DNA from: a virus
Length of the DNA: 64,000 nucleotides
Virus record (IMG/VR): IMGVR_UViG_3300020403_000005
Location: 1-64,000 of that record
Reading direction: 5' to 3' (one strand)
Positions 9,053 to 34,094 of the stretch are shown one piece after another. The position numbers and the translations under genes are program-made. Position 1 is the first letter of the stretch, and each line of letters begins with the position of its first letter. The notes under the pieces were generated by a model. The model saw only the letters and a list, made by a program, of their open reading frames with translations, was not told the origin of the DNA and made no database searches.

Positions 9053-9074
9053 ATATAATATTACACTAAAAAAA

Positions 9075-9484
9075 TGGTGGAGGCGGCGGGAATCGAACCC
9101 GCGTCTTTAGAACCCTAAATTCCAAAGTTCTACAAGCTTAGTCGATCTAATACAATACGTGTCTGTGACCGACAACTTCACGTAAGGTTTGGTCTATCTT
9201 TTTTTAAACAACTGGAGACTCAACCAGACTCAACCAGTGTTTTTCTCGCTATCGTCGCCCTATCTCATAAGCGAGAATCCTGAGTAGGACGGAGCAGAAC
9301 TACGCTGCCATCGCGGCTTCTTGATAGCCAAACTGAGCGAGAATCGCGTCAGCTTCAGCTACCGAGGGAGCCATATCAACTGCATCTTTAGCATTTGACG
9401 TTGTAATAGATTTTTTAAGAGGCCAACTATCATCCTCTGCTTGCTGTTTGGCGTCAGACCCTAAATCGAATCCAGTACGCCCCC
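9075..9484 (-). ncRNA. ssrA: tmRNA (one-piece, 410 nt)
   Basis: 5' GGGGGCGTACTGGATTCGA; 3' GCGGGTTCGATTCCCGCCGCCTCCACCA; acceptor stem with G3:U70; internal tag frame ending in AAMAA-stop. Confidence 0.95.
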
Positions 9485-9490
9485 AAAATT

Positions 9491-9655
9491 TAACCCCTTG
9501 TTTCAAGGCGGGGCATCCTTGCTAAGTTTCATCTGACGCGCTTTTCAGTTTGGCACTTAGTCACCAACATAAGGCAAGCACGAGCCTTCTGAGTTTCGAT
9601 TCACGCACCTTTCAGCTTGGCACTCAGGAACCAGCGTGAGGCAGGTACGAGCCTC
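9491..9655 (-). ncRNA. Unrecognised 165-nt tandem-pseudoknot RNA, copy 1
   Basis: Two 67-nt units plus a 31-nt terminal pseudoknot; colinear, gap-free homolog at 33882-34046; compensatory changes in four helices. Confidence 0.85.
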
Positions 9656-9674
9656 TGTGTATTACACTCATAAA

Positions 9675-13760: not shown

Positions 13761-13835
13761 TGGAGGCTCTGAGCGGACTCAAACCGCTGACCGCTGGGTT
13801 ACAAAACCAGTGCTCTATCACTGAGCTACAGAGCC
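13761..13835 (-). tRNA. tRNA-Thr(UGU), CCA encoded
   Basis: GGCTCTG/CAGAGCC acceptor, GCTC/GAGC D-stem, anticodon loop TT-TGT-AA, AGCGG/CCGCT T-stem, 3' TCCA. Confidence 0.9.
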
Positions 13836-21726: not shown

Positions 21727-22149
21727 ATGAATATAAGAGATGTTTCTAATGAGTTGTTTCAGTGGTTTTCCGACAATGACTCGTTTTGTATCTCAAAAGA
21801 TTTCAATAAAGTAATTTTAATCACAGAGCATAGACAAAGAGACACCGCCGCCCTCAAGGCTGCTTTAAATAATCTAGAAAAAGTAAACTTAATACAAAAA
21901 CAAGAAATCGAAGGAGAAGAAATTTGGGTTTTAGAAAAACCATTCGAACAATACGAGCAAACAGTGGAGATACCGCCGCAGACCTGTATAGCCATAACTG
22001 AAATAATTAACTCTTTTTGCGATGAAATAGAAGACCAAACAGACCGAGTAAACTCATCCGAAATAACCCCAAAAGACATTAATAATTTAGTTATTTTATG
22101 TAATCATTTCAAATCTTTAACTCTGCCGAGTCAAAATAACGAAGCCTGA
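21727..22149 (+). CDS. Hypothetical protein
   Basis: 140-aa ORF, first gene of the plus-strand block. Confidence 0.6.
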   Translation: MNIRDVSNELFQWFSDNDSFCISKDFNKVILITEHRQRDTAALKAALNNLEKVNLIQKQEIEGEEIWVLEKPFEQYEQTVEIPPQTCIAITEIINSFCDEIEDQTDRVNSSEITPKDINNLVILCNHFKSLTLPSQNNEA

Positions 22150-22185
22150 GTTGACTTTTGTTCAAAAACAGTTTATTGTACAACA

Positions 22186-22553
22186 GATAATAAAAGGCTA
22201 TACCTTTTAAGCTCGCTGAGAAACAACAGTGGAGTTTTCCTTGAGGCAATCGAATGCAGTAGATGGGGTAGCTGGCCGCTACCTAGCCAACGGGTGATAG
22301 GCTGTCCGTGTCCGTGCACGGTCAAAAAACATTCAGTTAATTACTGAAGCATTACCCCAGCGTAAGCAATATGCTAGGTGAATCAATGTAAGTAGAGTTT
22401 TCTGTGGAACGGTTTCTCTCGCCTTTATTTAGGTAGTTGATTTCGGATTTAATCCGATTGCGGTGTGTGTGGAATGTCTCATCCATGTTAAAAACACAGA
22501 GCTACGAAGAAAAGTCACACAGCAGCATCCCCCCCTCTGGGGGGGTGTTGTGT
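22186..22553 (+). ncRNA. Putative ~370-nt structured non-coding RNA of unknown family
   Basis: TTGACT-N17-TATTGT promoter (22151-22179); no ORF; about 8 helices visible; ends in a long C7/G7 hairpin. Confidence 0.6.
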
Positions 22554-22630
22554 TCGTTCTAAAGAAAAAGTATACACAGCTTAAAATTCGTCTGGACTTT
22601 TCTTCAAAAATAACTTAATATAAATTAATC

Positions 22631-23239
22631 ATGATTATCGGACTTTCTGGAGTTGCTGGTGCTGGCAAGGACACTTTTTTTAAGATATTTAAAAAGTTAA
22701 TTGGTGATAAACGTAAGGTCGTAAGATTCGCTTTGGCTGACGCCCTCAAGAAAGAAGTCAGCACTTGGACCAAAAAGCACTACGGAATTTGTGCGTTTGA
22801 TTGTTCTAGAGAGCAAAAAGAAGTTATTCGTCCTTTTTTAGTGTTGCATGGAGTTCAAAAAAGAATGGCTTCCGAAGGAAGACATTGGATCGAGCTTCTC
22901 GATCCAGAATTAAAGGATTATGTTGATTCCGACGATATCGCCATCGTGACCGACATCAGATATGCAGACTTCGAAAAAGATGAGGCTTACTGGATTCAAC
23001 ATGAATTGAATGGTTTTATTGTTCATATTTCTATGTACATCCCGAAGAAGAACTCTAACGAGGGCGTGTTAGAGATGCATTTTGTGAAGCCCTATAATGA
23101 AGAAGAAGCTAGAAACGACCCGAAGTTAAAGGATGCGTCAGATATCAAGGTGGAGTGGCCTAAGATTGAAGATAATCCTGAGTTTGAGCAAAAGATAGAA
23201 AAACACGTACAAAATGTAATAGATTCTTTGGGTTTATAG
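22631..23239 (+). CDS. Deoxynucleoside monophosphate kinase
   Basis: IIGLSGVAGAGKDT, FALADALK, IVTDIRY..E. Confidence 0.85.
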   Translation: MIIGLSGVAGAGKDTFFKIFKKLIGDKRKVVRFALADALKKEVSTWTKKHYGICAFDCSREQKEVIRPFLVLHGVQKRMASEGRHWIELLDPELKDYVDSDDIAIVTDIRYADFEKDEAYWIQHELNGFIVHISMYIPKKNSNEGVLEMHFVKPYNEEEARNDPKLKDASDIKVEWPKIEDNPEFEQKIEKHVQNVIDSLGL

Positions 23240-33460: not shown

Positions 33461-33873
33461 GACTCTTAAATATCAACGGCAAGCTACAGAAAAAAAGCGT
33501 AACTAAATATCTTGTAGATTGGGATAAAAAGTCCCGCTCCAAGATACAATTTACAGTAAAACAATTCCTAAAGACCTACTGGAAAGGTCAAGTAGTTTAT
33601 GAAGAGTTTCCCGTGTACGGAACTAAAATGTCAGTTGACATATTAAATGCTACAAAAAAAATAGCAATAGAAGTACAAGGGCGACAGCATAATGAATTTA
33701 ATAAGTTTTTTCACTCTGACTCACGATTGAAATATTTAGAGTCAATTAAACGAGACTTAAAAAAAGCCGAATGGCTAGAAATGAATGACTTTAATCTAAT
33801 AGAAATAAACGAAGATGAAATAAATCAGCTTTCTAAAAAATTCTTTTTGACAAAGTTCGATATTGTGCTATAA
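33457..33873 (+). CDS. PD-(D/E)XK / DUF559-like endonuclease
   Basis: VDIL...IAIEVQGRQH...RDLKK..WLE. Confidence 0.68.
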   Translation: MRLLNINGKLQKKSVTKYLVDWDKKSRSKIQFTVKQFLKTYWKGQVVYEEFPVYGTKMSVDILNATKKIAIEVQGRQHNEFNKFFHSDSRLKYLESIKRDLKKAEWLEMNDFNLIEINEDEINQLSKKFFLTKFDIVL

Positions 33874-33874
33874 T
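33847..33874 (+). promoter_or_regulatory. Consensus sigma70 promoter of tandem-pseudoknot RNA copy 2
   Basis: TTGACA-N16-TATAAT with extended -10 TG; predicted +1 near 33881, the first base of the RNA. Confidence 0.75.
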
Positions 33875-33881
33875 CAACTTT

Positions 33882-34046
33882 AAGGTTCGCGTCTACCTTG
33901 CGCTGGTGACTGAGTGCCATGCTGAAAGCCGTGATACTTGAAACTCAGAAGGCTCGCGCTTGCCTTACATTGGTGACTAAGTGCCATATTGAAAAGTACG
34001 AACCTAGAAACTTAGCAAGGTTGCCCCGCCTTGAACCAAGGGGTTT
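33882..34046 (+). ncRNA. Unrecognised 165-nt tandem-pseudoknot RNA, copy 2
   Basis: Gap-free homolog of 9491-9655; 2 x 67-nt units plus CAAGGT-TGCCCC-GCCTTG-AACCAA-GGGGT pseudoknot. Confidence 0.85.
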
Positions 34047-34065
34047 ACAAAAACTAAAACAGGTC

Positions 34066-34094
34066 TTGACGCAAGACCAAAAACAAGGTATATT
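34066..34094 (+). promoter_or_regulatory. Sigma70-type promoter of dnaB
   Basis: TTGACG-N17-TATATT, 13 nt before ATG 34108. Confidence 0.65.

Follow-up and report, generated by a model that had tools for sequence, protein, structure and literature searches.

A probable new family of stand-alone structured RNA, about 375 nucleotides long, in uncultured marine phages

This study provided comparative evidence that a gap between two protein genes in the phage record IMGVR_UViG_3300020403_000005 very probably holds a real structured RNA gene of a new family. The window, namely the whole stretch of DNA analyzed, is the first 64 kb of this 84,362-base IMG/VR record, which is rated 53% complete. An initial annotation, made from the sequence of the window alone, had proposed an undescribed large phage noncoding RNA (ncRNA) at this place; the proposal was borne out by strong covariation and by the lack of a match in Rfam 15, and several details of the fold then drawn were wrong. 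Our whole statement, that a stand-alone ncRNA gene of about 375 nt at 22186-22560 on the + strand represents a new marine-phage family and would act in trans as a folded particle, is put forward with roughly even confidence. Taken by itself, the suggestion that the RNA serves as a trans-acting particle or scaffold is tentative.

The main evidence comes from compensatory base changes. RNAalifold detected them in 24 pairs with four sequences and in 26 pairs with ten. A structure model was handwritten on an alignment of 25 sequences (A5) and then counted; it contains 86 pairs in 17 counted runs, or 19 named helices, as H3a/b and H9a/b were merged in the count. Standard pairs were present in 97.0% of 2127 cells, compared with 90.8% in shuffles. 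Covariation among homologues, on which the initial annotation had staked its reading, was strong: 34 of the 86 pairs changed on both sides, against a shuffle mean of 18.1, and none of 500 shuffles reached 34. The number of cells changed on both sides was 144 (shuffle mean, 36.4). When the partners were slid by 1-3 columns, 30-41% of the cells paired and 6-11 pairs changed on both sides. An all-versus-all search for covarying column pairs was swamped by the relatedness of the sequences.

The strand of the fold was also evident from the alignment. G.U pairs occupied 222 cells versus 15 for A.C, and standard pairing under the model fell from 97.0% on the + strand to 87.3% on the - strand. Since G.U far outnumbers A.C and pairing drops on the - strand, the RNA is read from the + strand, which is the folded strand, in agreement with the promoter and the hairpin described below. 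As the open stretches differ in length among members and indels in the alignment break any frame, the element is a structured RNA and not a coding sequence. Compensatory changes, strand-specific G.U pairs and the absence of a conserved reading frame, which are the generic marks of a structured ncRNA, were all found together.

Folding of the single sequence gave z = -2.6 on the + strand and -2.75 on the - strand; because these values are nearly equal, single-sequence folding alone cannot tell the strands apart, and the scores hint at structure in a manner that is suggestive and not decisive. A fold that beats shuffles by the same small margin on the two strands would be expected if the stretch were conserved DNA with incidental hairpins and no functional RNA. 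This explanation is the least credible of those considered here, in view of the 34 pairs with compensatory changes, the excess of G.U over A.C and the pseudoknots with four to five Watson-Crick combinations.

According to the model, the RNA is a compact multi-domain molecule with two junction domains, about 19 helices, two pseudoknots and a mostly GAAA-capped hairpin, which is kept by compensatory changes (Table 1). In the 5' junction, H4 has a conserved 10-nt loop and two of its three pairs change on both sides. The H5 loop forms pseudoknot PK2, in which three of four pairs change on both sides and 98% of the cells are paired; read by eye, the family variants AGCC/GGCU, GGUC/GACC, GGUU/AACC, AGCU/AGCU and AGUC/GACU make five Watson-Crick combinations. 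In PK1, formed by the H7 loop, two of four pairs change on both sides, with the variants CUGC/GCAG, CCGU/GCGG, UCGC/GCGG and CUGU/ACAG. The loop of H9 is a GAAA cap in 19 of 25 members and AUA in the window, as read from alignment A5. At the 5' side, AAGCUC is followed by a small hairpin, H2, and has two candidate partners, GAGCU at 22499-22503 (GRGCUU in the family, about 290 nt downstream) and GAGUUU at 22232-22237 (20 nt downstream); both pair in 92-96% of the cells, and neither has a two-sided change. H14 encloses the invariant AAAAACA in addition to H15. Two length differences were also observed. The locus L021 carries a 16-nt insertion at about 915-935 (within 718-1099), located exactly in the H11b loop, as is typical of a variable-length stem of a structured RNA. 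At 22505-22516, within repeat copy 1, 10 nt that read AGCAGCACAC in the other members are missing from the window and L006; H14 is kept in these two by a shift to the next CACAC, a register that was set by eye.

Table 1. Predicted parts of the RNA and features of its locus, by position in the window.
Feature	Position	Strand	Remarks
140-aa open reading frame (ORF), upstream neighbor	21727-22149	+	winged-helix model
Promoter-like site: TTGACT, 17-nt spacer with CAAAAA, TATTGT	22151-22156, 22174-22179	+	9 of 12 matches
Sites of the recurring promoter type	22151, 22593, 23890, 34066, 45882	+	
Sites of the recurring promoter type	18224, 941, 345	-	
P0, 5' hairpin AAAAGG/CCUUUU	22192-22208	+	in 17 of 25 members, with different stem letters; absent in 8
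AAGCUC, highly conserved 5' strand of H1	22209-22214	+	partner ambiguous
5' three-way junction: H3 (CCU/GGG and GGC/GCC), H4 (AUC/GAU), H5	22239-22294	+	
H5	22266-22272 with 22278-22284	+	6 of 7 pairs change on both sides
PK2 pseudoknot, H5 loop GGCC with GGCU (22274-22303)	22274-22277 with 22300-22303	+	second strand just before H7
H7, hairpin CCGUG/CACGG	22306-22321	+	5 of 6 pairs change on both sides
PK1 pseudoknot, H7 loop CCGU with GCGG	22312-22315 with 22460-22463	+	second strand just after H13
H8, hairpin UUCAGU/ACUGAA	22332-22348	+	3 of 5 pairs two-sided; 100% of cells paired
H9, hairpin	22358-22380	+	little variation
3' junction domain: H10 enclosing H11a (AGAG/CUCU), H11b (CUGU/ACGG), H12 (GCC/GGU)	22381-22442	+	
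H10	22381-22387 with 22436-22442	+	5 of 7 pairs change on both sides
H13, hairpin UCGGAU/AUCCGA	22443-22457	+	4 of 5 pairs change on both sides
H14, UGUGU with ACACA (22464-22521)	22464-22468 with 22517-22521	+	compensatory: C-G 19, U-A 3
H15, hairpin GUGGA/UCCAU, inside H14	22469-22486	+	never varies
Repeat copy 1, GCUACGAAGAAAAGUCACACAG	22501-22522	+	purine-rich linker carrying the 3' strands of H1 and H14
Long C7/G7 hairpin, 13 pairs, then UGUUGUGUU	22522-22551	+	likely intrinsic terminator and RNA 3' end
Repeat copy 2, UUCUAAAGAAAAAGUAUACACAG	22557-22579	+	after the hairpin
dNMP kinase gene, downstream neighbor	22631-23239	+	PHROG 139, E 2e-10

The helices drawn in the initial annotation fared unevenly. 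The local hairpins GGTAGC/GCTACC, CCGTG/CACGG, TTCAGT/ACTGAA, TCGGATT/AATCCGA and AGC../..GCT, as well as the terminal hairpin, are real and covary in the family. The remaining ones were counted jointly, as five helices of that annotation together with our own alternative AAGCTC/GAGTTT, and gave 81.6% of cells paired versus 80.9% in shuffles and four two-sided pairs versus 2.4. Thus, covariation did not exceed that of shuffles in this count of six helices for the long-range GAGAAAC/GTTTCTC or for GGGTGAT/ATTACCC, GTAGTT/AGCTAC and TGTGT/ACACA. The first four pairs of the long-range helix, GRGA/UCUC, are conserved and could form in place of H11a. A pseudoknot between TGGC and GCCA had also been suggested and is not supported; the partner of the GGTAGC hairpin loop is instead GGCT at 22300-22303.

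Concerning the distribution of the RNA, conserved stretches of the first alignments were used as DNA search patterns. The flanking proteins led to the loci L002, L003 and L006, of which the first and last contain the RNA and L003 does not. A DNA pattern identified ten IMG/VR contigs, and a second anchor pattern identified the same ten. In metagenome contigs, the same pattern was found in 47 stretches: 28 were homologous over the whole element, as confirmed by nhmmer (E ≤ 2e-54), and 19 matched the pattern only. The total is 39 copies including the window (38 further), of which 29 are distinct and 25 both distinct and full length, with one RNA copy per record. Pairwise identity was 79% on average and 63% at minimum. 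Most members score about 400 bits, and the outliers of the family are the window (276 bits) and L006 (269 bits). Among the prokaryote species genomes, 15 pattern matches were obtained, none of them homologous and all due to chance. GenBank phages gave no blastn match with the window stretch or with the copy of L011, and no tblastn match with the 140-aa protein encoded upstream. As far as the collections searched show, the family is restricted to one clade of uncultured marine phages. In comparison with L002, the RNA is the only flank-to-flank region that still aligns as DNA, and in comparison with L005, three regions align within 6 kb, of which the RNA is the best. The RNA is better conserved than the surrounding protein genes.

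The RNA lies in an ORF-free gap of 481 nt (22150-22630), which no ORF of at least 70 aa covers. This gap had been described as the largest unexplained one; by size it ranks second in the window, and the larger gap, 9053-9674, is explained by the transfer-messenger RNA (tmRNA) that it holds. As the initial annotation stated, the element is richer in GC than its flanks, with 45.5% for 22187-22560 versus 34.0% in the upstream ORF and 39.1% in the dNMP kinase gene (38.4% in the window).

The genes around the RNA differ among phages. In all 11 IMG/VR-derived loci, including the window, the order was leftward genes, winged-helix gene, RNA, an optional 270-aa gene, dNMP kinase and a sigma-like gene. 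Overall, four contexts were observed. The RNA stands between the winged-helix gene and the dNMP kinase gene in the first; the second has the 270-aa gene inserted between the RNA and the kinase gene. In the third context (L030 and L037), a dUTPase-like gene and an HNH gene precede the RNA, a small membrane-like gene follows it, and the opposite strand carries the winged-helix and kinase genes; the gene downstream of the RNA in L048 is the same as in these two. In the fourth (L021), the RNA stands between a 202-aa gene and, downstream, a convergent gene. These four contexts make it unlikely that the RNA is a leader of the dNMP kinase gene or a 3' untranslated region of the winged-helix gene. Judged from this gene order, the RNA appears to be an independent gene that keeps its own flanks while the neighboring genes differ. 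In L030 (2254-2844, - strand) and L037 (3170-3760, - strand), a gene of about 200 aa with HNH-like Cys/His residues ends a few bases before P0; it may be a homing endonuclease parked beside a highly conserved target.

Based on the same comparison, a cis-acting leader is improbable, whether a riboswitch or an attenuator dependent on a protein, through which transcription past the C7/G7 hairpin into the operon downstream would be regulated. A structured element with a terminator-like hairpin upstream of nucleotide-metabolism genes would suit such a role, as would the mutually exclusive conserved pairings (AAGCUC with its two partners; CUC with GAG of H11a or GRG of the H2 loop) and the conserved repeat copy 2 past the hairpin, which would exist only in read-through RNA. 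However, the genes that follow the RNA in the various phages include at least three unrelated ones, the next gene in L021 is convergent, the downstream gene has its own promoter-like site in the common contexts, and no riboswitch family in Rfam matched.

The initial annotation had assigned to the RNA its own sigma-70 promoter. The site is present, and TTGAC was found at the corresponding place in 16 of the 23 homologues having enough upstream sequence, but a scan of the single sequence performed at chance level. The distance from TTGAC to the core was 41-48 nt in members without P0 and 58-60 nt in members with P0 (16/23 members), that is, about 17 nt longer when the hairpin is present. As this distance tracks the presence of P0, the predicted RNA start falls just before P0, and we infer a 5' start near 22186. 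A separate promoter for the next gene had also been claimed, and such a promoter-like site does lie ahead of the dNMP kinase gene at 22593-22621, 79% identical over 28 nt to that of the RNA. Both belong to a recurring type, TTGAC-N5-6-YCAAAA(A)-N5-6-TAnnnT, with CAAAAA conserved in the spacer, which stands ahead of the RNA, the dNMP kinase gene and other genes; searched for as TTGAC-N5-6-YCAAAA-N-TAnnnT, it has about eight clear further or related sites in the 84-kb record. This common promoter type suggests that the RNA is co-expressed with replication and nucleotide genes.

At the other end, the terminal helix noted in the initial annotation corresponds to the 13-pair C7/G7 hairpin, which is kept in all 25 aligned members, although its loop and run lengths vary. 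The RNA tail GAAGAAAAGTC is complementary to the -35 region of the next promoter; by eye, this complementarity is not conserved in L002 or L006, and it was taken as chance.

Comparison with known RNA families was performed with Rfam 15, whose 4227 models include RNase P, tmRNA, 6S, the signal recognition particle (SRP), group I/II introns, cobalamin and other riboswitches, GOLLD, ROOL, HEARO and pRNA. At gathering scores, the whole window gave only the tmRNA (9075-9484) and a tRNA (13764-13835). When a 901-nt stretch was searched at E up to 10, nothing came near a gathering score: the best match within the RNA was Peptidase-S11, with 22.4 bits (gathering 34.8, E 0.29), and the overall best was Phe_leader, with 23.8 bits (gathering 55, E 0.2), on the - strand at 22519-22629. 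Five homologous loci searched at E up to 5 had no match inside the RNA; the one sub-threshold match, manA with 15.7 bits (gathering 55.2), is on the opposite strand and overlaps only the RNA 3' end. ARAGORN found no tRNA or tmRNA gene in 22000-22700. The Rfam comparison that the initial annotation had called for therefore returned no known family, and its remark that no RNase P, 6S, SRP or group I/II signature is visible agrees with the absence of any Rfam 15 match in the stretch or in the five homologues.

Since the phage carries its own tmRNA and a tRNA, a very divergent housekeeping RNA (RNase P RNA, a second tmRNA, 6S or SRP) might be considered; it is very improbable, with no model match in either search and the negative ARAGORN result. 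Its helix order does not fit the topology of RNase P, tmRNA or group I either. Several resemblances have the support of no model and were not used: AAGCUC.../...ACAYWGRGCUU resembles the two strands of RNase P helix P4, and there are likenesses to CR-III, the 11-nt tetraloop receptor (CCUAAG) and the GTPase-centre RNA of 23S rRNA. A group I or II intron was rejected, because on both sides stand complete, unrelated genes, which vary from one phage to another. A guide RNA of IscB/TnpB (HEARO/omega RNA) was likewise rejected: the neighbors are the 140-aa winged-helix protein and dNMP kinase with no adjacent IscB/TnpB, and the upstream HNH-like gene of about 200 aa, its motif read by eye, occurs only in L030 and L037. 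Finally, no likeness was found to the double-pseudoknot modules at 9491-9655 and 33847-34094, the blastn-short matches being chance-sized, at most 14-15 nt.

Most bacterial RNAs that are as large and complex as this one are ribozymes or the cores of ribonucleoproteins. A large ribozyme whose conserved pseudoknotted core catalyzes, for example, RNA processing or self-processing at the repeated motif would fit the two pseudoknots, the junctions, the GAAA loop and the many invariant unpaired nucleotides, and the repeat that flanks the terminal hairpin could mark two equivalent sites. We consider this quite unlikely, because no likeness to the ribozyme families of Rfam (RNase P, group I, group II, glmS, HDV-like) was detected, the complete unrelated flanking genes speak against an intron, and no candidate active-site motif was found.

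The terminal hairpin is flanked by a direct repeat, a purine-rich sequence of 22-23 nt with the motif GCU(U/A/C), 1-2 bases, AAG(A/G)AAAA(A)(G/U), 3-5 bases and CACAC, which occurs nowhere else in the 84-kb record. About 28 nt past the hairpin (22552-22579) were conserved in all 24 members inspected, whichever gene follows. The two copies change in parallel. AGGAAAAAA was found in both copies of L032, L039, L041 and L046, a six-A run in both copies of L018, and AGG in both copies of L007, with L028 close; further, L030 and L037 have AAAAG followed by G or U, the window and L006 have AAA(A)AGU in both copies, and L048 has GGAAA(A)GU in both. These parallel changes fall on at least five separate branches of the core tree. 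When genome labels were permuted, a crude test, the observed within-genome likeness of the copies was reached in 31 of 5000 cases. Four explanations are possible: a common protein or nucleic-acid partner that reads both copies, iteron-like DNA sites, the use of copy 2 as an alternative closing strand in read-through RNA, and gene conversion between neighboring repeats. Pairing of copy 2 with the 5' end or with the 5' strand of H14 was rejected by eye, since it fails in CUA-type members and has no covariation. No longer iteron array was found.

Concerning the gene upstream of the RNA, the 140-aa protein had no PHROG match, and its sole Pfam row, Iron_permease, was below the cut-off (16.2 bits versus 25). 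A structure model based on 17 homologues (pLDDT, the predicted local distance difference test, 88.4) shows a winged helix followed by long helices. Its best look-alikes in the Protein Data Bank (PDB) are MarR-family and BlaI/MecI-type regulators, with E 6e-3 and weaker, and the leads from a protein atlas are similar, all under the 0.9 reliability line. The protein evolves fast, with 21-50% identity among the 17 homologues. Of the 22 loci for which upstream sequence is available, 19 have this gene immediately before the RNA, and in L030 and L037 it is no more than 1.6 kb away; the related record of L003, a 37%-complete fragment without the RNA, is also without this protein. In addition, a GC-rich 13-nt repeat, GAGA(C/T)ACCGCCGC, occurs twice in the AT-rich ORF, at 21839-21851 and 21967-21979, 128 nt apart.

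An RNA-primed replication origin was the second reading offered in the initial annotation. In that case, the transcript or its purine-rich 3' part would form a persistent RNA-DNA hybrid that primes the leading strand, and the repeats would be iteron-like sites for the winged-helix protein. Primer RNAs are known from ColE1 (RNA II) and the T4 origin transcripts, and polypurine tracts, which the repeats are, make stable RNA-DNA hybrids. The cumulative GC skew, proposed in the initial annotation as a check of origin position, has a local minimum at about 21-22 kb, beside the divergent gene switch, and rises to a maximum at about 47 kb. An origin would also agree with two direct repeats found only here in 84 kb, with their parallel change in several branches, as in iterons with a binding protein, with the proximity of the fast-evolving winged-helix gene and its joint absence with the RNA from the fragmentary record, and with the promoter type common to replication and nucleotide genes. 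However, both skew extremes are at gene-orientation switches, and a coding-strand switch is itself a cause of skew, so that replication and transcription cannot be told apart by the skew. The repeats number only two, and no AT-rich block for unwinding stands out from ordinary intergenic DNA. Further, a primer needs neither two pseudoknots nor about 19 covarying helices, repeat copy 1 is part of the RNA helix H14 with its compensatory change, and a strong hairpin followed by a U-rich tail would stop transcription instead of prolonging a hybrid. An origin is therefore regarded as rather unlikely.

Several observations weigh against a stand-alone, trans-acting RNA. All sequences come from one fairly narrow phage clade, and their relatedness inflates the shuffle control, although the slid control is unaffected. 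The closing helix H1 lacks covariation. The scan for promoters found 3 sites versus 3.1 expected, and a clear TTGAC is missing in 7 of the 23 homologues. Both ends of the RNA are placed by the promoter and the hairpin, and conservation runs about 28 nt past the supposed terminator, into repeat copy 2, which a simple model of an RNA ending at the hairpin does not explain. In addition, the modelled 140-aa protein looks like a DNA-binding regulator.

Under the proposed mechanism, transcription would start from the sigma-70-like promoter of the RNA itself, which belongs to a phage-specific type that dNMP kinase and further genes of the replication region also have, and the transcript would begin just before P0 and end at the C7/G7 hairpin. 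The RNA would then act in trans as a stable folded particle during the phase of infection devoted to replication and nucleotide metabolism. It may bind a protein or self-assemble, as the covarying loop pairings can be intermolecular, and the likely contact surfaces are the many invariant unpaired stretches and the purine-rich linker. A bolder extension, that the family is a new class of large RNA machine, either a ribozyme or a self-assembling particle in which some of the "pseudoknots" are intermolecular, with the co-evolving duplicated purine repeat as a partner recognition element, is held at low probability.

Few bacterial or phage RNAs exceed 300 nt and have several pseudoknots, and the solved ones are ribozymes, ribonucleoprotein cores and, recently, RNA-only cages. 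The present RNA resembles GOLLD and ROOL in being phage-encoded, large, endowed with multiple pseudoknots and defined by covariation. In contrast to them, it matches neither of their Rfam models, is shorter than both at about 375 nt, and is not beside tRNA genes, the only tRNA being about 8 kb away. ROOL is roughly 580 nt long. According to PMC12286853, GOLLD is longer than 800 nt, and a ROOL loop pairing that was first read as tertiary proved to be intermolecular. By analogy with ROOL, PK1 or PK2 could be intermolecular as well; their covariation fits intramolecular and intermolecular pairing alike.

Two further systems are comparable in part. The phi29 pRNA is an essential, stand-alone structured RNA encoded by a phage, and its 4-nt covarying loop pairings are intermolecular. 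Our RNA shares the phage-encoded, stand-alone character and the 4-nt covarying loop pairings, whereas it has no Rfam match, is twice the size with a different fold, and is located among replication and nucleotide genes and not at a genome end. ColE1 RNA II is a long structured transcript with its own promoter, whose G/C runs and purine tracts favor RNA-DNA hybrids. The RNA described here is likewise a long structured transcript, as predicted, with its own promoter-like site, G/C runs and purine tracts, and it lies at the skew minimum; unlike RNA II, it has a terminal terminator-like hairpin and a far more elaborate fold, and no antisense regulator was seen. Like other large ornate phage RNAs, it is stand-alone and elaborately folded, and it is a member of none of those families.

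The family may already be among the candidates of an earlier survey. Fremin, Bhatt and Kyrpides (2023; PMC10690425) screened IMG/VR, the same contig source, and reported 8495 unnamed structured-RNA candidates. The main text of that article contains the word "kinase" 0 times and describes no RNA of the present kind.

The RNA is more conserved than the nearby protein genes, is present once per genome and lies among replication and nucleotide genes, and it is probably important for infection in the clade that carries it, whose members are large ocean phages that have not been cultured. Its length of about 375 nt puts structural and biochemical studies within direct reach, and the co-evolving direct repeat provides a concrete handle toward the partner of this RNA.

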